A stretch of DNA of 64,000 bases from positions 5,245,735-5,309,734 of the forward strand of contig OZ257156.1 of assembly GCA_965279375.1 (NCBI GenBank), read 5' to 3'. Below the pieces are notes generated by a model that was not told the DNA's origin, did not search any database, and saw only the letters and a list, made by a program, of their open reading frames with translations. Made by a program: the position numbers and the translations under genes. Source of the DNA: Gemmatimonas sp. Lineage in GTDB: Bacteria; Gemmatimonadota; Gemmatimonadetes; Gemmatimonadales; Gemmatimonadaceae. How positions within the stretch are numbered: position 1 is the stretch's first letter; each line of letters starts with the position of its first letter. This document shows, one piece after another, positions 51,705 through 62,366 of this stretch.

Positions 51705-52064
51705 ATGCCATTGACCCACTTGGAGTTACGTCACATCGAGAAGCGCCTGCACGAGGAGCGCGACCGGATCGTCGCGCAGTTGCACGAGTTCACCGGCCCG
51801 GAAGCCGCCGAGGATAGTGAGGACCGCGCCGGGGACATTTCGCAGTTCCCGACGCATCCGGCGGACCTGGGCACCGATGTCGCGAGTGAGGAGCTGGACG
51901 CGTCCATCGCGACACGGCGATCGGCCGAAATCGCGGAGATCGACGCGGCACTGGAGCGCCTGCGTACGCACCCCGAGATGTTCGGCGTGGACGAGAACGA
52001 TGGTTCGCCGATTCCCTACGCGCGTCTGCAGATCATCCCATGGGCGCGAACGACGGTGGGCTAG
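51705..52064 (+). CDS. TraR/DksA (YteA-like) protein without zinc-finger cysteines
   Basis: HPADLGTD coiled-coil tip, EIDAALERL, FGVDENDGSPIPYARLQIIPWAR; GGAG RBS. Confidence 0.85.
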   Translation: MPLTHLELRHIEKRLHEERDRIVAQLHEFTGPEAAEDSEDRAGDISQFPTHPADLGTDVASEELDASIATRRSAEIAEIDAALERLRTHPEMFGVDENDGSPIPYARLQIIPWARTTVG

Positions 52065-53914
52065 CGCAAAGGCTCTTCTGGCAGAGGCTGCCCGGGAACC
52101 CACGCCACTTCGCGCAGCCGCGCCAGCCACGCGAGCACGCGCGCCTTCTCCACGTGTACGGGACACACGAGTACATCGCCGTCACGCGCCCAGGCGAAGG
52201 CCTCGCGGACGGCGCTGAACTCGTCCGGCGAAACGCTCACGCGCTCCGCCGACACGCCACGCTGTCGCAAGGCGTCCACGAACACGGCCGGCATTTCCCC
52301 TAACGCTCGGCCGCGCAGCATCTGCGGCATCTCTTTGATGATGACGCGATCAAACGTCGTCGCGTCGACCGCCGCATCGACCAGTGCGCGAAGCTGCGTG
52401 TCGTCGCGATTGCCGGCCTGCCCCAGCAGCAGCAGGCGCCGCCGCGCGGGCAATTTATTTGCTGTTTCGCACAGCGCGGCGAGTCCATCCGGGTTGTGCG
52501 CGTAGTCCACCAGTGCCGTCACGCCACCAAAGCGAGAAAGCTGCAACCGGCCGGGATTGTCCGACGGTGACTCGCCAAAGTGTGCGAGCGTGTGGCGAAT
52601 CGCGTCGAGCGGGACACCGCTGGCGTAGGCGACCACACTCGCGCCGACGAGATTGGACACGTTGTGCGGGGCCGCGCCGCCGAGGGCGAGTGGCATGTCG
52701 GCGATCGCGCCGAGGTCGTGCCATCGTCCGTCGATGCACATGGTGATGCGTTCGTCGCGCACGACGGCGGCGAGTCCACCGAACTCTGCGTGCCTTGCGA
52801 GGCCATCGAACTCCGCGCGCGTGCTGAACCACGCCAGTCGCGCCCCCACCGACGGCGCGACCTCCACGAGCGTTGTGTCATCGGCGTTGAGCACGAGCGT
52901 GCCCTCGTGGTCGATCAGCGCGTGCCGAATGATGAGTTTCACGCGCGCGAGGTCGTACAGCGTATGCACGCCGTACTCGCCGAAATGATCGGCGGCGATA
53001 TTGGTGATGATACCCGCGCTCGCGCGCTGCGTGGCCAAGCCGCGCCGCAACATCCCGCCGCGCGCTGTCTCCAGCACAGCAGCTTCCACGCGATCGTCCT
53101 GCAGCACGACGCGCGCGCCGGCCGGCCCTGAGTAGTCGCCGCTATCGAGCTGCGCGTCGTCCACCCACACGCCATCGCTGCAACACCAGCCCGTCGCCTT
53201 CCCCGCCGCGCGCCACATCGCCGCGACCAGTCGTGTCGTGGTCGTCTTTCCGTTTGAACCAGTCACCAGCGTGACAGGGACTTCGCGCACCGCCTCCCAC
53301 GCGATGTCCACTGGCGCGGGGAGTGCAGCCATTGGCCAAACCAGTGCGCCGGCGCCGGTTCCGATCGACACGCGCTCATCATCGAACGCGATCGTGTTGC
53401 CCCGCGTGCGCGCCAGCCGGTACACCTCGGCGAGATGCGGTCGCATAGCACGCTCCTGCTCGAACTGCGCGCTGAGCTTCGCCGCCAACGTCGGGTCGCC
53501 GTACACGTAGCCCTCGATCAAGTGCGAGCGTTCAGCGATCACCCACGACTGCTCCGCAATCTCCGTCGCGGTCATGAGTCCATCGACGGGCGCCGGCACG
53601 AACAACGAGACAGTCGTCGCACCGGGCGCATTGTCAGGAACAATGCACATCTGTTCCGTCGGCCACCGTAGCATGCCGAGTTGCCGCCTTGCCTCCGTTG
53701 CCCACGCATCGTACAGGCGCACGCGCGAGATCGCGGGCACATCGGCAACGTTCACCTCGAGTACTGCGCCCTCGGTGCTGCCATACAGGTTCGCCCCCAT
53801 CAACCGCCGCGAGTCCACGATGCGTGGCGATGGGTACTCCGATTCCGTCACCGGTGCTTCTGTCGAGTGGGGCGCTACGGCCTCGCTGGGCGCATCCGGC
53901 GGAATTGCAGCCAC
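52061..53914 (-). CDS. cyanophycin synthetase-derived Mur ligase (N + M domains, ATP-grasp domain absent)
   Basis: DSRRLMGANLY N-terminus; VTGSNGKTTT, GDYSGP, LETARGG, DHFG, VLNADD, PGR, DYAHN, GNRDD all parallel the neighbouring CphA M domain. Confidence 0.88.
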   Translation of the reverse strand: MAAIPPDAPSEAVAPHSTEAPVTESEYPSPRIVDSRRLMGANLYGSTEGAVLEVNVADVPAISRVRLYDAWATEARRQLGMLRWPTEQMCIVPDNAPGATTVSLFVPAPVDGLMTATEIAEQSWVIAERSHLIEGYVYGDPTLAAKLSAQFEQERAMRPHLAEVYRLARTRGNTIAFDDERVSIGTGAGALVWPMAALPAPVDIAWEAVREVPVTLVTGSNGKTTTTRLVAAMWRAAGKATGWCCSDGVWVDDAQLDSGDYSGPAGARVVLQDDRVEAAVLETARGGMLRRGLATQRASAGIITNIAADHFGEYGVHTLYDLARVKLIIRHALIDHEGTLVLNADDTTLVEVAPSVGARLAWFSTRAEFDGLARHAEFGGLAAVVRDERITMCIDGRWHDLGAIADMPLALGGAAPHNVSNLVGASVVAYASGVPLDAIRHTLAHFGESPSDNPGRLQLSRFGGVTALVDYAHNPDGLAALCETANKLPARRRLLLLGQAGNRDDTQLRALVDAAVDATTFDRVIIKEMPQMLRGRALGEMPAVFVDALRQRGVSAERVSVSPDEFSAVREAFAWARDGDVLVCPVHVEKARVLAWLARLREVAWVPGQPLPEEPLR

Positions 53915-53917
53915 GGG

Positions 53918-56773
53918 TTAGTCGTTGGCGTCGGGGGCGAGGATGACGCCGCGTGCGTCGCGCAGCAGAACCAGATCCTCCGAGGTCGTTGTCCAGCGGG
54001 ACGGCGCTTCTTCGCGAACGGGCGCAGCCTTGGCGGGTTCGATGTCGTCCGCGGGACCTTCTTCCAGCACCGCGGCCCGCGGCACCGAGCGCGCAGCGCG
54101 TGGTGCAGGGATCACCGTCGCATCTGCATCGGGCCGGAAGTTCACGATCTGCTTCCAGCCGCGCGCGAGTGCGTCGGCGAATACGAGCACCAGGTCCGTC
54201 GCACGGGCCATCCGCAGCACCGTGTCGATCGCCTGCTGCTCGTCCACGATCACGGTGATGTGATCGTCAGGGATACCACCCGCTCGCAGCGCCGACGCCA
54301 ACATCTCTGGAATCTCGCGTTCGCCACGTCCACGCAGCGCGTCATCGCGGCGGCAGATGTAGTGATCGAACTGCGCCGCCGCCGCCACGTTGGCGATCGC
54401 GATGATGTCTTCGTCGCGACGGTCGCCCGGCGCAGACAGCACGCACAGCCGGCGTCCCTTGGGCGACATGCGATTGACCAGCTGACAGAGCGCGCTCACC
54501 GCATGCGCGTTGTGCCCGTAGTCGAACAGCACCTTGAACGGATGCTGATCGTAGACGTTGAGCCGCCCCGGCGCCTGGAAGAACGTCGTGTCGAATGTGC
54601 GCAAGCCATGACGAATGTCTTCCAGCCGCACGCCCATGCTGAACGCCATCGCTGCCGCGAACATCGCGTTCTGTACGTTGAAAGTCGCGCGCCCCTCGAG
54701 CGTGGCCGGAATGAGATGCGTCCAGAGCAGCGGGATATGCGCGCCGCGATCGTAGATCGTGATCATCTGTCCGTTCACACCCGCTTCGATCGCACACGCG
54801 CGACCACCCGCGCGAATGTGCTCACGCACCAGATCGTGCGCCGGATCCATCGTCACGTAGCAGACGTGCTTTGCATCCGTGTACGCCGCCATGCGCAAGG
54901 TGAGCGGATCGTCCGCATTGAGCACGGCCGTGTCGGTCGCGATCTCCACCACCGTGCGCTTCACCTCGGCCAACTGCTCTAGCGTGTCGATCCCCTTCTG
55001 CCCCAAGTGATCCGGCTGGATGTTGAGCACCGCGCCCACGTCCACGTGCCGCATCGCCATGCCAGCACGCAGCAAGCCACCGCGCGCCGTCTCCAGCACC
55101 GCCACCTGCACCGCCGGATCGCTGAGCACGATACGCGCCGAGGTCGGTCCGGTCATGTCGCCTTCGACGGTACGCTGCCCATCGATGTACACGCCATCGG
55201 TGGTGGTCAGCCCAACGCGCTGGCCTGCCAGCTTGTGAATGTGAGCGAGCAGTCGCGCGGTCGTCGTCTTACCGTTCGTGCCCGTGATCGCCGCAATCGG
55301 AATGGTGCTCGGCGCGTTCTTCGGGAACAGCATGTCGATAACCTTCCCGGCCACATCACGCGGACGCCCCTCGCTGGGGGCCATATGCATGCGAAAGCCG
55401 GGCGCTGCGTTCACCTCACAGATCGCGCCACCGATGTCCTTGTACGATTGCGTGATGTCGGGCGTGAGGAAGTCCACGCCACCCACATCGAGTCCGATCG
55501 CCTGAATCGCGCGCACGGCCATCTCGGCATTGTCCGGGCTCACGACATCGGTCATGTCGGTGGCCGTGCCGCCCGTGGAGAGATTCGCGGTTAACCGCAG
55601 GTAAACATTCTCTCCCGCCGGCGGCACGCTCTGAGGTGTGTAGCCCAACTTGCCCAACAGCCCCATCGCCTGCTCGTCCAGCTCGATCTGCGTGAGCACC
55701 TTCTCGTGGCCAATGCCGCGACGCGGATCGGTGTTCACCACGGCGACCAGCTGCTCGATGGTGTGCACACCATCGCCCACCACCTTGCCCGGCTCGCGCT
55801 TGGACACGGCCACCAACTCGCCGTTGACCACCAGCATGCGATGATCGTGCCCCGTGATGTAGCTCTCCACGATCACGCTGCGCGAAATCTCCGCCGCGCG
55901 CGCAAAGCCTGCCGTTACTTCTTCTGAGTTGGTGAGCGAGATGGACACGCCGCGTCCATGGTTGCCGTTGTACGGCTTGGTCACCACGGGATAGCCGATG
56001 CGCTCTGCAGCAGCGACCGCACGCTCCGCACTCTGCACCAACCGCTGCTTGGGTACCGGCAGCCCCAAGCGCGACAAGATGTGATTGGTTTCTTCCTTGT
56101 CGCTCGCCAGATCCACGGCGATGTGTGGCGTGCGTCCGGTAATCGTTGCCTGAATGCGCTGCTGGTTGCAGCCGTAGCCCAACTGAATGAGGCTCTGCTC
56201 GTTGAGGCGCATCCACGGGATGTCGCGCGCTTCGGCGGCGTGCACGATGCTCGCGGTGCTGGGCCCCAGCGCGCGTCGCTGCGCGTACCGAATGAACGAA
56301 TCACGACGCGCCGCAAGATCGAAGCTGGCGTCGGCATCGGCCGGTCGCAGCTCGGCGGGCAGCAGATGATGCAGCAGGTCGAGTGCGACGTCAGCGGCCT
56401 CGAGCCCAACATCCTCCTGCTCGTATTCGAAGACCACGTCGTACACACCCGGCCGCGCGGTTTCACGCGTCTTGCCGAAGGTGACCTTCACGCCGGACAC
56501 GTTCTGCAACTCGATCGCCACATGCTCCAGCACATGACCGAGCCACGTGCCTTCGTCCTCCGTCATGCGACGCACGAACCCACCGGGCTCGCCATACGAG
56601 CAGCCGTGTTCCTGCAGGCCCGGCAGCGCTTCCAGCAGCGACGCGATGAATGCGTCACCGAGGCGACGCGTCGGCCATGCTTCCAGTTCGCCCAGGTCGA
56701 GTTCGAGCCGAATGACGGGGAAGTGCGCGTAGTGGCTAGGCCCAACGTAGACGGAGCGATCGAGGATCTTCAT
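53918..56773 (-). CDS. cphA: cyanophycin synthetase CphA1
   Basis: N domain (HGCS...GHVLEH), LGPST, ATP-grasp (KPYNGNHGRGV, GHDHR, NLSTGG, EVNAAPGFRMH), Mur domain (ITGTNGKTT, ETARGG). Confidence 0.97.
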   Translation of the reverse strand: MKILDRSVYVGPSHYAHFPVIRLELDLGELEAWPTRRLGDAFIASLLEALPGLQEHGCSYGEPGGFVRRMTEDEGTWLGHVLEHVAIELQNVSGVKVTFGKTRETARPGVYDVVFEYEQEDVGLEAADVALDLLHHLLPAELRPADADASFDLAARRDSFIRYAQRRALGPSTASIVHAAEARDIPWMRLNEQSLIQLGYGCNQQRIQATITGRTPHIAVDLASDKEETNHILSRLGLPVPKQRLVQSAERAVAAAERIGYPVVTKPYNGNHGRGVSISLTNSEEVTAGFARAAEISRSVIVESYITGHDHRMLVVNGELVAVSKREPGKVVGDGVHTIEQLVAVVNTDPRRGIGHEKVLTQIELDEQAMGLLGKLGYTPQSVPPAGENVYLRLTANLSTGGTATDMTDVVSPDNAEMAVRAIQAIGLDVGGVDFLTPDITQSYKDIGGAICEVNAAPGFRMHMAPSEGRPRDVAGKVIDMLFPKNAPSTIPIAAITGTNGKTTTARLLAHIHKLAGQRVGLTTTDGVYIDGQRTVEGDMTGPTSARIVLSDPAVQVAVLETARGGLLRAGMAMRHVDVGAVLNIQPDHLGQKGIDTLEQLAEVKRTVVEIATDTAVLNADDPLTLRMAAYTDAKHVCYVTMDPAHDLVREHIRAGGRACAIEAGVNGQMITIYDRGAHIPLLWTHLIPATLEGRATFNVQNAMFAAAMAFSMGVRLEDIRHGLRTFDTTFFQAPGRLNVYDQHPFKVLFDYGHNAHAVSALCQLVNRMSPKGRRLCVLSAPGDRRDEDIIAIANVAAAAQFDHYICRRDDALRGRGEREIPEMLASALRAGGIPDDHITVIVDEQQAIDTVLRMARATDLVLVFADALARGWKQIVNFRPDADATVIPAPRAARSVPRAAVLEEGPADDIEPAKAAPVREEAPSRWTTTSEDLVLLRDARGVILAPDAND

Positions 56774-56778
56774 GGGGC

Positions 56779-57609
56779 CTAGTCGTCGGAAGCGAAAACG
56801 GCGGCGCCGGTCGCCTGCCGTGTATGCAGGTTGAACGTCGAGCCTTGGGTGAGCACATGCACCGTCACGCCAGTCAGCGTTACTGCTTCACCTGGCTTGG
56901 CCTCTGCGATGGACGAAAACTCCACGCGCGACGGATCGACCACGGTCACCGCGCCGGTGCCCTGCACTTCGAGCGTTTCGTCAGGACCGATGAACGCCGC
57001 CGTGTCTTCATCCACGCCGAGTCCGACGGCGAACGGATTGTAGGCCAGTGCCGTAAGCAGGCGGCCGAGTCGATCTCGTTGACGGAAATGCTGATCGACG
57101 ATGACACGGTTGGTTAGACCGAGTCCGGCGCACATTGTGACCATACCAGCGCGCGGCGTGGAGCCGTCTTCGCCAAAGGCGATCATGTGCTCGCTCAGGA
57201 ATGCGGCGCCGGCGCTGGTGCCCGCGATGTGTACGCCGGCCGCGTTGCGAAGACGCAGCAGCTTGGCCACCGGGGTCCCGCCGAGCGTGGCCGTCAGCTT
57301 GAGCTGGTTGCCGCCGGTGAGGAATACGCCGGTGGCGCTGGCCAGCCAGTCCAGCCAGTCGCTGTCATCACAATCGCTGCGGCGTTCGAAGCGGAGGGAC
57401 TTGGCGAACCGCACGCCGAATTTGGCGAAGACCCGCTCGTAGTAGGTCCCCATGTCCGGTTCGCTGGACGCGGTGGGGATGACGGCAATGCGTGCATCCG
57501 CTCCGCCGCTGACGGCGACGAAGCGTTCCAGGATAGAGTCGTCCGCGAGCTTGCCGCCGATCGGGATGATCCAGCCGCGCGCGACGTCAGGAATGGGGCG
57601 TGAAGGCAT
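56779..57609 (-). CDS. cphB: cyanophycinase
   Basis: IPTAS, TGGNQL, GTSAGA (Ser nucleophile), DQHFRQRDRLGRL, GVDEDT; immediately upstream of cphA. Confidence 0.95.
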   Translation of the reverse strand: MPSRPIPDVARGWIIPIGGKLADDSILERFVAVSGGADARIAVIPTASSEPDMGTYYERVFAKFGVRFAKSLRFERRSDCDDSDWLDWLASATGVFLTGGNQLKLTATLGGTPVAKLLRLRNAAGVHIAGTSAGAAFLSEHMIAFGEDGSTPRAGMVTMCAGLGLTNRVIVDQHFRQRDRLGRLLTALAYNPFAVGLGVDEDTAAFIGPDETLEVQGTGAVTVVDPSRVEFSSIAEAKPGEAVTLTGVTVHVLTQGSTFNLHTRQATGAAVFASDD

Positions 57610-57686
57610 GGTGACGCAAGCTAACGCCCGCCGTCGCGCTCTGGTAACGTTCGCCGGTATGCTGCGACCGCCCTGCTGATACTGCC

Positions 57687-58871
57687 ATGCTGACCCTGCT
57701 CCGTAACGCCAACGTCTACGCCCCCGAGCCGCTCGGCCTCCGCGACCTGCTGATCGGCGGCGAACGCGTGCTCTGGATTGGCCCGGCGCTCGACGCCCTT
57801 CCCACGTCGCTCGGCGTCTCCGTCGTGGATCTGGGCGGGCAGCGTGTGATTCCCGGCCTGATCGATGGACATGTGCATCTCACGGGCGGCGGCGGCGAGT
57901 CCGGGCCTGCGTCACGTGTGCCCGCGCCGGAGCTCACGCGCTACACGCTTGGCGGTGTGACCACGGCGATCGGCGTGCTTGGCACCGACGACGTCACGCG
58001 CACGACAAGCGCGTTGGTGGTGGCTGCGCGTGCGCTCGTGGCAGAGGGGTTGAGCGCGTGGTGTCATACAGGCGGCTACCATGTGCCGCTGACCACGCTC
58101 ACCGGCACGGTGCGCGGCGATATCGCGCAGATCGATCGCATCATCGGCGTGGGCGAGGTCGCCATCAGCGATCATCGTTCGAGTCAGCCGACGCTCGACG
58201 AGCTGCTACGCATCGCGTCGGAAGCGCACGTGGCGGGGCTGATGTCCGGAAAGGCGGGCATCGTCCATCTGCATCTGGGCGACGGCGAGCGCGGACTCTC
58301 ACTCGTGCGTGAGGCGATCCGCACCAGCGAGATTCCGGCGCGCGTCTTCAATCCCACGCACGTCAATCGGCGCAAGGCGCTGTTCGAGGAGGCGCTGAGT
58401 TTGGCGCGCGAAGGCTGCTTCGTGGACATCACCGCGTTTCCCGTGGCTGATGGCGAAGACGCATGGGGCGCCGCCGACGCACTCGTGCGCTATCTCGACA
58501 GCGGTGCGCCGACGGCGCAGGTGACCGTCAGCTCCGATGGCGGCGGCTGTCTGCCCACCTTCGATGCGAATGGGCGCGTGGTGCAGATGGACGTCGGCGA
58601 TTCCCGCGCGTTGCTGGGCACCATCGCCGAGCTGCTGCAACGCGGATTGGCACTCGAGCGCGTACTGCCCGCCTTCACCAGCAATGTGTCGGACTTGCTG
58701 CGCCTGCCGAGTAAGGGCCGAATCGCGGTGGGCGGAGACGCGGATCTCGTCGTGCTGAACGCGGCCCACGAGGCGACCCATGTCATGGCGCGCGGCGCGT
58801 GGCATGTGCGTGACGGCACCGCCATCCGGCGCGGCACGTTCGAACCACCCCGGGATCCGCAAGTCGCTTGA
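57687..58871 (+). CDS. iadA: isoaspartyl dipeptidase (beta-aspartyl peptidase)
   Basis: PGLIDGHVHLTGGGGESG, LGTD, TGGY, GEVAISDHRSSQP, HLHLG, PTHVNR, SSDGGG. Confidence 0.95.
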   Translation: MLTLLRNANVYAPEPLGLRDLLIGGERVLWIGPALDALPTSLGVSVVDLGGQRVIPGLIDGHVHLTGGGGESGPASRVPAPELTRYTLGGVTTAIGVLGTDDVTRTTSALVVAARALVAEGLSAWCHTGGYHVPLTTLTGTVRGDIAQIDRIIGVGEVAISDHRSSQPTLDELLRIASEAHVAGLMSGKAGIVHLHLGDGERGLSLVREAIRTSEIPARVFNPTHVNRRKALFEEALSLAREGCFVDITAFPVADGEDAWGAADALVRYLDSGAPTAQVTVSSDGGGCLPTFDANGRVVQMDVGDSRALLGTIAELLQRGLALERVLPAFTSNVSDLLRLPSKGRIAVGGDADLVVLNAAHEATHVMARGAWHVRDGTAIRRGTFEPPRDPQVA

Positions 58872-58896
58872 CAGAAGCGCCCGGGAGGTCGATGTT
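58868..58896 (+). promoter_or_regulatory. sigma70-like promoter for the riboswitch-RNR transcript
   Basis: TTGACA (overlapping the iadA stop), 17-nt spacer, GATGTT. Confidence 0.45.
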
Positions 58897-58969
58897 CCGC
58901 ATTCGCGATTGCAGGCAAGTCGTGGTCGCGAGATGACACAGAACAAGACATAGGTGCTGGTCGTTGTGT

Positions 58970-59170
58970 GCCGCCTCTTGGGTGCACGACGCGAAGAGGG
59001 AACCCGGTGCGATTCCGGGGCGGCCCCGCCGCTGTGAGGGAGGACGACGAAGTCGAGAGCCACTGCAGCCAGTTCGGTGCGGGAAGGCGGCTTCGAAGGA
59101 TGATTCCCGAGCCAGAAGACCTGCCAGAGACCCGGAGTCCGCGCACACCCTCGAGGGAGGACGTGCCGGG
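58970..59170 (+). ncRNA. cobalamin (B12) riboswitch
   Basis: GAAGAGGGAA-CCCGGTGCGATTCCGG-GGCGGCCCCGCCGCTGTG ... GCCACTG ... GGGAAGGC ... B12 box GAGCCAGAAGACCTGCC; P13-like CCT-CGAGGG-AGG. Confidence 0.93.
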
Positions 59171-59207
59171 GATTGTCGTCGGCGCATGTGCGTCGGTGGC
59201 GCCGCTG

Positions 59208-59240
59208 GGCTCCTTGCGTACCTCGCAGGGGGCCTTTTTT
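59208..59240 (+). terminator. riboswitch expression-platform terminator
   Basis: GGCTCCTTGCG-TACCT-CGCAGGGGGCC then TTTTTT, about 110 nt before the RNR start. Confidence 0.8.
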
Positions 59241-59347
59241 GCCGCGACCAATCATCGGTCGCGGCGATGGCGCAGCGTCCTCGGGGGTGTGCGTTCCACG
59301 CGCAGTTGAGATGCACTTGAGTGGTCTCACCCCCAATGGAGCTGCAG

Positions 59348-61765
59348 ATGACGACCATCGCCCCCGAATTGATTTCGCTAACGCCGTACGAATTGCCGCC
59401 GCTCGCGTCGCGAGCCACCGCCGTCATCAAGCGCGACGGCCGCACGGCAGCGTGGGACCCGGAGCGCATCACGCGCGCGATCGCGCTGGCGTTCTTCGCC
59501 TCGCGCTACGACAACGCACCCAACCCCAACGCCGACAACGCCGCCGCGCGCTTCGGTCTCGGCTTCAGCGACTTCTCCGAAGTGCTCGCGATCACGCAGC
59601 TCGTGGTCAACACGGTCCATCGGAAGGTCGAGACGCGCACGCCGACGGTCGAAGAGATTCAGGACATCGTCGAGATGATGATCGCGGCGCGTGGCCACTG
59701 GGACATCGCCAAGCGGTTCGTGATCTACCGCGCCACGCGCGCGACGCAACGAATGATCGCGCACGACGAGAACGGCATGCAGGACTACATCTTCTTGTCG
59801 CGCTACTCACGCTACCGCGACGACCTGGGTCGCCGCGAAACACCCGCCGAAGCATTCACGCGCGTGATGGACATGCATCGCACGCACTTCGCCGATCGCC
59901 TCGATGCACCGGTGACCGGCCTTGGCAATCGCACGCTGCGTGCGCTGATCGACGAGACTGAAGCGGCGCTGCAATCGCGCGCCATTCTTCCGTCGATGCG
60001 TTCGCTGCAGTTTGGCGGTTCGGCGATCGAGGCGAACAACGCGCGCATGTTCAACTGCGCGTTCACGCACATGAATCGCCTCGATGCCTTCAAGGAGGCA
60101 TTCTTCCTGCTCCTCTCGGGAACTGGCGTAGGCTTCAGCGTGCAGCGGCATCACGTCGCGCAGCTCCCCGCGTTCCCGTTGCGCGCCGCAGAGAACGAAC
60201 TGCCGGTGATGCATCACACTGTGCCCGACCAGCTCGAAGGGTGGGCGGACGCGCTCGACGTGCTCATTCGCAGCTACCTCGAAGGCGTGAAGGTCGAGTT
60301 CAACTACAGCGAGATTCGTCCGCGTGGCGTTCCGCTGCGTACGTCGGGCGGTCGCGCGCCGGGACATCTGCCGCTCAAGAAGGCGCTCAGCGCCGTCGAG
60401 CGCGTGCTCGAACAGGTGCCGGGACGTGCGCTTCGCCCAATCGAAGTCTACGACATGATGATGCATGTCGCGGTCGCCGTGCTCTCGGGTGGCATTAGAC
60501 GCTCGGCGACGATCTGCCTCTTCTCCGCCGACGACGACGAGATGGCCGCGGCGAAGACCGGCAACTGGTTCGAGACCAATCCGCAGCGTGGCAAGTCGAA
60601 CAACTCCGCGGTGCTCATCCGCGATCGCGTGCAGGAGCGCGACTTCTCGCGGCTGTTCGAATACCAGAAGGAGTTCGGCGAGCCCGGGTTCTATTTCGTG
60701 GATGACGCCGAGTACGGTGCGAATCCGTGCGTGGAGATCGGCCTGGCGCCCGCGCTCACGGTGGACGAAACGACACAGCGCCAACTGGCAGCACACGGCA
60801 AGCGTGACGCGCAAATCGGCGAGCGGTTGTCCGGCTGGCAGATGTGCAATCTGACGACGATCAACGCGGCCTCGTGCGACAGCGCAGAGACGTTTTACGA
60901 CAGCTGCCGTGCGGCATCGTTGTTGGGCACGCTGCAGGCGGCGTACACCGACATTCGCTACTTGGGCCCCGTCACGCGCGTCATCAATGATCGCGAAGCG
61001 TTGTTGGGCGTGAGCATCTGCGGCATTCTCGAGCGTCCGAGTTTGTTGCTACAGGCAAACGTGCTGGAGCGCGGTGCACAGATCTGCCTCGACACGAACG
61101 CCGCAATCGCCGAGCATTTGGGTATCTCGCCGGCCGCGCGTATCACGTGCGTGAAGCCGGAGGGCACCGCGAGTCTCGTGCTTGGTGCCGCGTCCGGCAT
61201 TCATCCGCATCACGCGCGTCACTACTTCCGCCGTGTGCAAGCGGCGCGCACCGAGCCGCTGTATCAGTGGTTCAAGCAGCACAATCCGCACATGACCGAA
61301 GCCTCGGTGTGGGACCCCGAAACGACGGACGTGATCACGTTTCCCGTCGCGGCCAACGCCGATGCGATTCTGCGCGCTGACGTCGGTGCGGTGCAGTTTC
61401 TCGAGTATGTGCGTCTCGTTCAGGAACACTGGGTGTGCGCCGGCCGTCGTCACGAGCAGTACAACCCCGGGCTGCAGCACAACGTGTCCAACACCGTCAC
61501 CGTGCGCGACGACGAGTGGGACGCCGTACACGATTTCATCTGGAGCAATCGACAGTACTTCGCGGGCATTTCGCTGCTGCGCGAAACGGGCGACAAGATC
61601 TACCGGCAGGCGCCGCGTGAAGAAGTCACGACCGAGGCGGATATCGCGCGATGGAACACGTTGCGCTACACGCCGGTGGACTACACATCCCTGCTCGAGA
61701 GCGACGATCGTACCACGCTGGCTGATGTGATCGCGTGCGCAGGCGGGGCCTGCGAGATCGTTTAA
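59348..61765 (+). CDS. nrdJ: class II (adenosylcobalamin-type, monomeric RTPR-like) ribonucleotide reductase with N-terminal ATP cone
   Basis: ATP cone VIKRDG; LPSMRSL, NCAF, GVGF, GGIRRSA, GEPG, finger loop NPCVE, CNL, KPEGT, C-terminal CAGGAC; GGAG RBS. Confidence 0.88.
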   Translation: MTTIAPELISLTPYELPPLASRATAVIKRDGRTAAWDPERITRAIALAFFASRYDNAPNPNADNAAARFGLGFSDFSEVLAITQLVVNTVHRKVETRTPTVEEIQDIVEMMIAARGHWDIAKRFVIYRATRATQRMIAHDENGMQDYIFLSRYSRYRDDLGRRETPAEAFTRVMDMHRTHFADRLDAPVTGLGNRTLRALIDETEAALQSRAILPSMRSLQFGGSAIEANNARMFNCAFTHMNRLDAFKEAFFLLLSGTGVGFSVQRHHVAQLPAFPLRAAENELPVMHHTVPDQLEGWADALDVLIRSYLEGVKVEFNYSEIRPRGVPLRTSGGRAPGHLPLKKALSAVERVLEQVPGRALRPIEVYDMMMHVAVAVLSGGIRRSATICLFSADDDEMAAAKTGNWFETNPQRGKSNNSAVLIRDRVQERDFSRLFEYQKEFGEPGFYFVDDAEYGANPCVEIGLAPALTVDETTQRQLAAHGKRDAQIGERLSGWQMCNLTTINAASCDSAETFYDSCRAASLLGTLQAAYTDIRYLGPVTRVINDREALLGVSICGILERPSLLLQANVLERGAQICLDTNAAIAEHLGISPAARITCVKPEGTASLVLGAASGIHPHHARHYFRRVQAARTEPLYQWFKQHNPHMTEASVWDPETTDVITFPVAANADAILRADVGAVQFLEYVRLVQEHWVCAGRRHEQYNPGLQHNVSNTVTVRDDEWDAVHDFIWSNRQYFAGISLLRETGDKIYRQAPREEVTTEADIARWNTLRYTPVDYTSLLESDDRTTLADVIACAGGACEIV

Positions 61766-61784: not shown

Positions 61785-61827
61785 GCAAAACGCCCGTCGC
61801 TGCGCACTGCAGCGACGGGCGTTTTGC
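61785..61827. terminator. bidirectional intrinsic terminator
   Basis: perfect 19-bp IR GCAAAACGCCCGTCGCTGC-gcact-GCAGCGACGGGCGTTTTGC between convergent genes. Confidence 0.88.
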
Positions 61828-61844: not shown

Positions 61845-62366
61845 CTAGTGCTTCATCCCCTTCATCGGCGTGCACCCTTCTTCCAGCACGTCGAACTTGT
61901 CGTGCAACGCCTTGAGCGCGTCCTTGATCGTGTTGTTGTCGGCGTTCTTGGCCACCAGATCCGCGACGCTCTGCGTCTGTGGGACGAGATTCGTCGCCGC
62001 TTCCTTGAGCTTGGGCGTGGCGCACGCCGTCGGTGGCGTGGACTTGGCCAGCACCTTCGCCGCGGCGACCATGTCCGTCGCCTTGGCCCGAATCGGCGCG
62101 ATGTCGCCATTCTCCTTGGCCGGATGCCACGTGGCCATCATGAGCATGTGATACGCATCGAGCTCCTTCCAGCCGCTGCTCGGCATCTCTTCCTTCTTGC
62201 CCGGCATGGAGTGGTTCATGCCGCCCATGTCGTGCTCCATCCCGCCCGTCTTGGCGGGCGCTTTGGCGGGTGGCGTGGACGACGACTGCGCGGCGAGCGG
62301 CGCAGCACACAGGAGCAGCGCCGAAGCGGCGAGCGCAGAACGCAGTGTGGACTTGAAAGCGTGCAT
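61845..62366 (-). CDS. secreted helical protein with Met/His-rich segment
   Basis: signal peptide ending LAA; MEHDMGGMNHSM; YHMLMMATWHP; LHDKF; two mature-region Cys. Confidence 0.72.
   Translation of the reverse strand: MHAFKSTLRSALAASALLLCAAPLAAQSSSTPPAKAPAKTGGMEHDMGGMNHSMPGKKEEMPSSGWKELDAYHMLMMATWHPAKENGDIAPIRAKATDMVAAAKVLAKSTPPTACATPKLKEAATNLVPQTQSVADLVAKNADNNTIKDALKALHDKFDVLEEGCTPMKGMKH

Follow-up and report, generated by a model that had tools for sequence, protein, structure and literature searches.

A cobalamin riboswitch before the gene of a monomeric-type class II ribonucleotide reductase in Gemmatimonas sp., a probable back-up enzyme for B12 scarcity

Cobalamin (vitamin B12) riboswitches are routinely read as marking genes of B12 uptake, B12 synthesis or B12-independent enzymes. 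A 64-kb window of the Gemmatimonas sp. genome (assembly GCA_965279375.1, contig OZ257156.1, positions 5,245,735 to 5,309,734; numbered here from its first letter) carries such a riboswitch upstream of nrdJm, the gene of a class II ribonucleotide reductase (RNR), and the locus raises the question of why an enzyme of B12 type should stand under B12 control. The conserved switch marks a B12-type enzyme here, while relatives give the likely scarcity role to a B12-free enzyme. From the sequence it appears probable that nrdJm is a B12-repressed, still cobamide-dependent back-up RNR for B12 scarcity. What is new is the combination of known parts, a cobalamin riboswitch on a class II RNR.

The reductase and its leader RNA

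The paradox pointed out in the initial annotation, a B12 switch on a B12-type RNR, is real: the protein is not a class I enzyme, and no NrdB was found in the genome, which consists of one contig and is 99.95% complete. The inventory of RNRs proposed there as a check yielded one further enzyme, a dimeric P-N-S-P NrdJ at G000:C1:2937886-2940420 that scores above the TIGR02504 cut-off and has no riboswitch, and neither NrdB (PF00268) nor NrdD (PF13597) was found in the genome. The elements of the locus are as follows.

58868..58896, + strand: putative own promoter, TTGACA, 17-nt spacer and GATGTT, inferred from the conserved TTGAC
58941..59142, + strand: cobalamin riboswitch aptamer (RF00174, Rfam 115.9 bits) with P6 extension
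within 59020-59029, + strand: L5, inside the aptamer
59109-59125, + strand: B12 box, inside the aptamer
59134..59140, + strand: J1/13 element E1, able to pair either with E2 or, as a candidate antiterminator of 7 bp, with the left arm of the terminator
59143..59164, + strand: P13 hairpin, core 59149-59160, loop L13 CGAGGG at 59152-59157
59165..59173, + strand: conserved element E2 (alignment), which lengthens the P13 base by pairing with E1
about 59175..59200, + strand: spacer hairpin (folding)
59207..59240, + strand: terminator-like 12-bp hairpin and U6; stem 59207-59235, -21.7 kcal/mol, with compensatory changes
59241..59265, + strand: hairpin 3' of the U-tract (sequence, folding)
59279..59292, + strand: E3, predicted anti-Shine-Dalgarno (anti-SD) strand, with two alternative partners, the SD region and, over 14 bp, L13 plus the P13 5' arm
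59328..59341, + strand: SD region, GGAG at 59338-59341, plus C-rich E3 partner
59348..61765, + strand: nrdJm, 805-aa monomeric-type class II RNR with ATP cone (family profiles, predicted fold)
59420..59740, + strand: ATP-cone domain, residues 29-135 (PF03477, 54.9 bits)
59990, + strand: P-S-M-R apical loop; further motifs C241, N463-C465-E467, C504 and C801/C806, numbered from 59336
61787..61825, no strand assigned: hairpin flanked by A4 and T4 at the gene end, facing a convergent open reading frame (ORF) (sequence)

The start codon was placed at ATG 59348, not at 59321 or 59336, because GGAG precedes it, an in-frame stop lies between the two ATGs in two orthologues, and the gene as called in the database encodes 805 aa. 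The best family match is TIGR02505 (RTPR), with 230.6 bits but under the curated cut-off of 340.05, and the match to PF21995 (24.9 bits) is slightly below the cut-off of 27. The best solved relative is the L. leichmannii RTPR (1L1L), both by sequence (E 4e-28, 25% identity) and by Foldseek with a predicted model (predicted local distance difference test score 81.7; E 6.7e-30); the model shows the RNR barrel with the dimer-mimicking insertion and aligns to 1L1L over 580 residues with Z 34.5 and a root mean square deviation of 2.9. By its sequence and predicted model, the nrdJm product is a monomeric-type class II RNR (NrdJm/RTPR), in agreement with the initial annotation, which had also described a single-gene arrangement; no partner gene lies downstream, where the hairpin 61787-61825 is followed by a convergent gene. 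The C-terminal YY pair is missing as had been noted: FAGISLL occupies residues 742-748, and the commonest forms of this stretch contain no YY. Three other identities were rejected, namely class I NrdA (no YY pair, no PF00268 NrdB in the genome, best fold 1L1L), class III NrdD (no PF13597 match anywhere in the genome) and class O (nought), for which the protein has the wrong layout (its 805 aa include an ATP cone and the insertion, and no neighbouring gene is co-oriented) and a Z to 7URG of only 24.1.

The roles of C241, N463-C465-E467, C504 and C801/C806 are presumably those known for the L. leichmannii enzyme. NPCxE (NPCVE here) and CNL are present in all 40 clade members, and the C-terminal pair of cysteines in 36 of the 40, some of which are truncated at contig ends. 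The P-S-M-R loop, also found in 40/40, is a triphosphate-type motif according to PMC8365446. The protein thus laid out resembles the L. leichmannii RTPR, the Thermus virus NrdJm (PMC6459318) and the P-S-M-R NrdJ (PMC8365446) in the fold over 580 residues, the insertion domain, the finger-loop N-x-C-x-E, the C-terminal cysteine pair and the triphosphate-type apical loop, but differs from all three in its N-terminal ATP cone and in riboswitch control. Among class II RNRs, 11.3% have an ATP cone (bioRxiv 2022.04.23.489257), and P-S-M-R is found in 2.1% of NrdJ (PMC8365446). The cone of nrdJm is the only one found in the genome (PF03477), and no NrdR repressor was detected there via the ATP-cone family.

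The canonical B12 aptamer that had been seen by eye corresponds to RF00174 at 58941-59142 (115.9 bits against a gathering threshold of 31.5, E 2.3e-28, full model, positions 1-189), the sole Rfam family match in the window, and begins about 30 nt before the start first assigned. The P13 with its CGAGGG loop, the spacer hairpin and the U6 terminator were all located as well. Three pairs of the P13 core are invariant in 39/39 leaders, and E2 pairs with E1 in 88% of cells. L5 is C-rich and L13 G-rich, so that P13/L13 is complementary to L5 as riboswitch class I requires, and L13 is predicted, from knowledge of the class (PMC10653944), to be the kissing-loop partner of L5. A terminator scan was by itself uninformative (3 found, 3.3 expected); support for the terminator comes from conservation, since across 37 leaders 93% of cells are paired and G-C pairs are exchanged for A-U, and the U-tract is weak in several orthologue leaders. 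The whole leader is more stable on folding than its own shuffles (z -3.5). The candidate promoter at 58868-58896 scores under threshold in a consensus promoter scan. In 40/40 orthologue leaders a TTGAC is found no more than 130 nt upstream of the aptamer match, against a background of 6%, and this conservation suggests that the nrdJm leader has its own promoter. Absent from the initial annotation were the ATP cone, the J1/13 helix and a translational layer after the terminator; the last two bear on the direction of control.

Direction of the switch

Among the conserved pairings of the leader, the P13:E3 helix (14 bp, -27.2 kcal/mol here) is the strongest; it is found in the ligand-free minimum free energy structure and covaries across 34 distinct leaders, none of 5000 permutations matching the preference for own-species over cross-species pairing. 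E3 may alternatively pair with the SD region (-17.8 kcal/mol here). Ligand binding stabilises P13 in the B12 switches that have been studied (PMC10653944), and translation is therefore predicted to be OFF with B12. When P13 was locked in constrained folding of 37 leaders (3 further leaders were unparsable), the SD became more than 1 kcal/mol harder to open in 16 and easier in one; for the leader of this locus the figure is 4.9 to 7.4 kcal/mol.

Related leaders are consistent with this direction. In a tree, the leaders of the clade cluster with leaders from five operons, three nrdAB and two metE (SH-aLRT, an approximate likelihood ratio test, 85, not strong), with an aptamer identity of 0.70-0.77. 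An equivalent J1/13 helix competes with the SD-side hairpin in 3 of 6 comparison leaders, three that belong to this nrdAB/metE group, and because the genes under the related leaders are B12-independent, the J1/13 helix most likely marks the B12-free state. The Priestia megaterium metE repressing riboswitch (PMC10653944) likewise has a P13 with internal loop, a spacer hairpin and a terminator, and pairing of the P13 3' side with the terminator left arm is possible in both; here, unlike there, that pairing is weak, and the J1/13 helix and a translational anti-SD layer are added.

The OFF-with-B12 logic had initially been derived from pairing of L13 with the left arm, CGAGGGAG:CUCCUUG. This helix does exist (59152-59159 with 59210-59218), with 6 bp and 225 of 228 cells paired in 38 leaders, but it is weak and is probably not the main switch, a role for which it is not favoured: at a mean of -8.7 kcal/mol against -7.2 for letter-shuffled partners it barely beats composition, and its probability in folding is about 0. 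The logic itself is favoured by the 14-bp helix of P13 with the anti-SD strand and by the control of nrdAB and metE by related leaders; the switching of the terminator was not reproduced.

The opposite direction would be an ON switch, in which B12 favours the E1:left-arm helix and blocks termination, so that synthesis of the enzyme is confined to conditions in which its cofactor is available. This would be the simplest physiology, and an activating corrinoid riboswitch is known (PMC10653944). The E1:left-arm helix is well supported, with 7 bp, -12.4 kcal/mol here, a mean of -10.7 against -5.0 kcal/mol for shuffled sequences, and 93% of cells paired across 38 leaders, and it is seen in a folded intermediate with P13 intact. 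Yet the P13:E3 helix, the strongest conserved one, excludes P13 and frees the SD, and where nrdAB and metE leaders have an equivalent J1/13 helix, it would be expected to denote the state without B12. The known activating switch, that of Alkalihalobacillus halodurans cobT, is similar in its class I aptamer and predicted bulged kissing loop, but its P13 and terminator share bases (PMC10653944), whereas here the P13 core ends at 59160 and the terminator starts at 59207, 47 nt away, with none shared. The housekeeping NrdJ, moreover, has no switch. An ON switch is accordingly judged unlikely.

Several results weigh against the OFF direction as well. Covariation of the E3:SD pairing is marginal (257/5000 permutations), and the effect of a locked P13 on the SD is small (median +0.66 kcal/mol, 20 of 37 leaders within 1). 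Terminator stability is identical with P13 free or locked (median 13.6 kcal/mol), so that folding reproduced no terminator switching in either direction, and the E1:left-arm helix is compatible with an intact P13 and taken alone could mean ON. The J1/13 comparison scan was made without a shuffled control, and the other three comparison leaders show similar energies at unrelated sites. On balance it is nevertheless highly likely that the riboswitch turns nrdJm OFF with B12, and the leader sequences point to the ribosome-binding site as the place where this direction is clearest.

Descent of the switch and overlap with nrdAB

In Streptomyces coelicolor, the nrdABS system has B12-repressed nrdAB beside a B12-dependent NrdJ. 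The present locus is like the riboswitch-nrdAB systems in that a cobalamin riboswitch of related leader type controls a second RNR beside a housekeeping dimeric NrdJ, and unlike them in that the regulated enzyme is itself of class II, without a radical-generating subunit.

Conservation was assessed in the best 80 of 469 GTDB loci and likewise in the best 80 viral and metagenome loci (605 and 579 being the other two match totals); these sets overlap with the genome sets used for the genus and family counts, and the trees were quick trees. By Rfam, a riboswitch lies upstream in all 8 orthologues found among 40 relatives. Among the best 80 loci, 41 are at least 75% identical, one of them without upstream DNA, and the aptamer is matched in all 40 close orthologues with upstream DNA, 39 being intact and one (L032) partly deleted, so the retention of the riboswitch by orthologues, suggested at the outset as a check, was confirmed. 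In L032 (2700-2930), the promoter, 5' aptamer, E3 and SD are kept, and the B12 box, P13 and terminator are gone. No aptamer was detected at the 39 loci of 55-62% identity (5 have less than 350 nt upstream; Rfam on 37 agrees), and none of the 34 sister-clade genes with more than 600 nt upstream is preceded by a riboswitch. The switch forms a single branch (14 sampled members, SH-aLRT 100), a single origin is also supported at 99 in a second tree, and the branch extends to a 65%-identical member. Independent recruitment elsewhere was rejected: the 80 viral and 80 metagenome loci (a distant alignment) contained four with an aptamer, three at 79-81% identity and one at 65%, all on the same branch where placed, and none of the 80 viral loci had one.

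The sister NrdJm, which lacks the switch, is the only RNR found in 5/5 genomes of genus g20, and it coexists with NrdA and NrdB in 7 of the 34 genomes tested, which speaks against general exclusion. Gut genomes of Verrucomicrobia type contain it together with NrdD. Where the sister enzyme is present, 8 stretches, several of them cut off at contig ends, showed no riboswitch before nrdAB. In genus g20 (G049, G106, G141, G169, G191), the usual dimeric NrdJ of the family was not detected.

PF02867 is matched in 60 of 63 genus genomes, mostly by the housekeeping NrdJ. Within these 63, nrdJm was found in 34, true NrdAB in 4, both in none, a distant NrdJm in 1 and neither in 24; in a family draw of 161 genomes, 7 have NrdB and none of these has a full-length nrdJm relative. 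A cobalamin riboswitch is present at 9/9 nrdA loci checked in Gemmatimonadaceae. With 100 candidates scored per genome, two switches were found in each of three single-contig genomes, before nrdJm and a btuF-like gene; in a fourth, one of the two likewise precedes a btuF-like gene and the other precedes nrdA. A hidden NrdB was also considered and rejected. The weak PF00268 matches in 25 of the 63 genus genomes are not NrdB, and none is in this genome; the three inspected are R2lox-type fusions, one of them confirmed by NCBIfam, and one further match is a broken fragment in G238. The best reading of these sequences is that nrdJm took over the regulatory slot of nrdAB, one Gemmatimonadaceae lineage having presumably put an ordinary NrdJm under the leader type that controls nrdAB and metE.

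A rival reading is that control was simply inherited: nrdJm would have replaced nrdAB behind an existing switch and been kept for some other reason such as triphosphate specificity or ATP-cone control, repression merely sparing cofactor or protein. The likeness of the aptamers to those of nrdAB and metE leaders fits this, as do the loss of most of the switch in L032 and the frequency of paired NrdJ enzymes for nucleoside diphosphates and triphosphates, 760 of 1108 organisms (PMC8365446). The genes flanking nrdJm, however, are unlike those at the nrdAB loci seen, 39 of 40 switches are intact over orthologue distances of 0.8-1.4 at synonymous sites, compensatory changes and an additional layer of control being present, and the switch reaches the 65%-identical branch. 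Inherited control is thus regarded as rather unlikely.

Some loci met in these surveys deserve separate mention. L104:1653-3059, L105:1532-2941 and L106:2286-3626 encode an R2-like ligand-binding oxidase fused to an N-terminal domain, about 170 aa long, that by eye looks SCP2-like. Compact cobalamin aptamers of 137 nt (40-43 bits), unlike the other leaders, precede nrdAB at L097:4842-4978 and L099:2072-2208. Among L098, L100 and L125, nrdAB and then metE follow one switch in two genomes, and the third has a switch before metE near fragmentary nrdA/nrdB matches. The distant NrdJm of G230, with 38-40% identity, is split over two contig pieces (C332, C293) and is unlike the riboswitch clade.

A probable role of the enzyme under B12 scarcity

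MetH and a PduO-type adenosyltransferase are encoded in the genome; MetE and CobS were not found there, and GATase_3 matches are weak only. By these genes the bacterium looks like a B12 scavenger with both detected RNRs of class II. Of the other two B12 switches, one lies ahead of a BtuF-like ABC operon and one ahead of a TonB receptor gene with a CobW-like GTPase (both below curated cut-offs).

In the proposed mechanism, bound B12 would lock P13 through the L5-L13 kissing loop, and locked P13 would free E3 to cover the ribosome-binding site and probably also release the terminator left arm. Without B12, E3 would pair with P13, E1 (or L13) would hold the left arm, and the gene would be read. 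NrdJm would then reduce triphosphates with adenosylcobalamin and stay active at cofactor levels too low for the housekeeping dimeric NrdJ, whether by tighter binding, by more apo-enzyme capturing the scarce cofactor, or by using cobamides that the switch senses poorly. Among the three options initially offered, a scarcity or alternative-cobamide isozyme fits best, and the ON switch and B12 independence fit poorly.

Two other enzymes lend indirect support to a possible gap in affinity. A viral NrdJm works at equimolar B12, falls to 40% at 0.1 mM and is inhibited by excess (PMC6459318), while Pseudomonas aeruginosa NrdJab, a split dimeric NrdJ, has a K0.5 of at least 13 uM (PMC4520616). A natural P-S-M-R NrdJ reduces GTP with adenosylcobalamin (PMC8365446, whose text is inconsistent on which of two organisms it came from), and the Parvibaculum sequence from that paper has, by eye, the P-S-M-R motif and the same layout.

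It could instead be that the enzyme needs no cobamide and, with an unknown radical source, is a B12-independent substitute for NrdAB on a class II fold. Such independence would suit an enzyme that holds the nrdAB regulatory slot with no co-occurrence in the 63 genus and 161 family genomes (overlapping sets), that stays under the TIGR02505 curated cut-off (230.6 against 340), and of whose clade no assayed member was found in the literature. The protein itself argues otherwise. It has neither a partner gene nor an NrdB nor a YY pair, it matches 1L1L over 580 residues, and it keeps 164 of the 168 positions that are conserved in proteins outside the riboswitch clade (a set of 39 sister proteins and those 59 of 150 representatives without long inserts), the other 4 being conservative changes. 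The clade shows a median ratio of non-synonymous to synonymous substitution (dN/dS) of 0.16 (n=39). Sister genes coexist with NrdA and NrdB (7/34) and with NrdD, as class II commonly does. Since these positions are kept and a distant P-S-M-R relative needs adenosylcobalamin (PMC8365446), B12 independence is very unlikely.

The back-up role has its own counter-evidence. The non-overlap of nrdJm and NrdAB (P=0.04) assumes independent genomes, whereas kin are not independent, and about 24 of the 63 genus genomes and most of the family are without either back-up. The five differences from the sister clade are conservative, with no fixed change hinting at tighter cofactor binding; the affinity comparison sets two unrelated enzymes side by side in different assays; and the P-S-M-R enzyme that was assayed is only distantly related and was compared by eye alone.

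No report of a cobalamin riboswitch before an nrdJ gene was found in the full-text literature, most subscription papers lying outside its scope. The mutA gene of Veillonella parvula, which we take to encode methylmalonyl-CoA mutase, gives its name to a repressing cobalamin switch. As a switch named for the gene of a B12-dependent enzyme it is a partial precedent (PMC9600662); the enzyme is a different one, and the accessible part of that paper discusses no isozyme pair. Regulon surveys place cobalamin riboswitches on synthesis, transport and B12-independent isozymes (PMC3766115). In their accessible parts, PMC5704485, PMC8123684, PMC12816986, PMC9600381, PMC11575231 and PMC3766115 neither describe a riboswitch ahead of nrdJ nor give an affinity value that could be used.

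The top-scoring B12 switch of the genome (G000:C1:3374429-3380000; L002, L303) lies before the genes of a TonB receptor, whose best match is ZnuD-like, and of a GTPase resembling CobW; a gene that by eye looks Fur-like is nearby, and this locus possibly serves cobalt uptake rather than B12 uptake. Upstream of the nrdJm leader lies a cyanophycin cluster (52061-58871) with a synthetase (53918-56773, - strand), a cyanophycinase (56779-57609, - strand) and an isoaspartyl dipeptidase (57687-58871, + strand), all above NCBIfam cut-offs; a 617-aa ORF (52061-53914) resembles, by eye, the C-terminal half of cyanophycin synthetase. Read-through from these genes as the source of control is unlikely, given that the promoter motif of the leader is conserved and the upstream genes vary. 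Downstream, the product of 61845-62366 (- strand), 173 aa long and assigned to no Pfam or NCBIfam family, starts like a signal peptide and has stretches rich in His/Met; similar convergent ORFs lie 3' of nrdJm in L009-L012.

PMC8365446 names as open the question why two class II reductases are kept in many genomes. If the two enzymes of this genome differ in cofactor affinity or cobamide range, the pair would represent a B12-economy strategy by which freshwater and soil bacteria that scavenge B12 keep a scarcity isozyme; should the enzyme work without any B12, it would bring new radical chemistry to the class II fold. The system is directly testable in cultivable bacteria.

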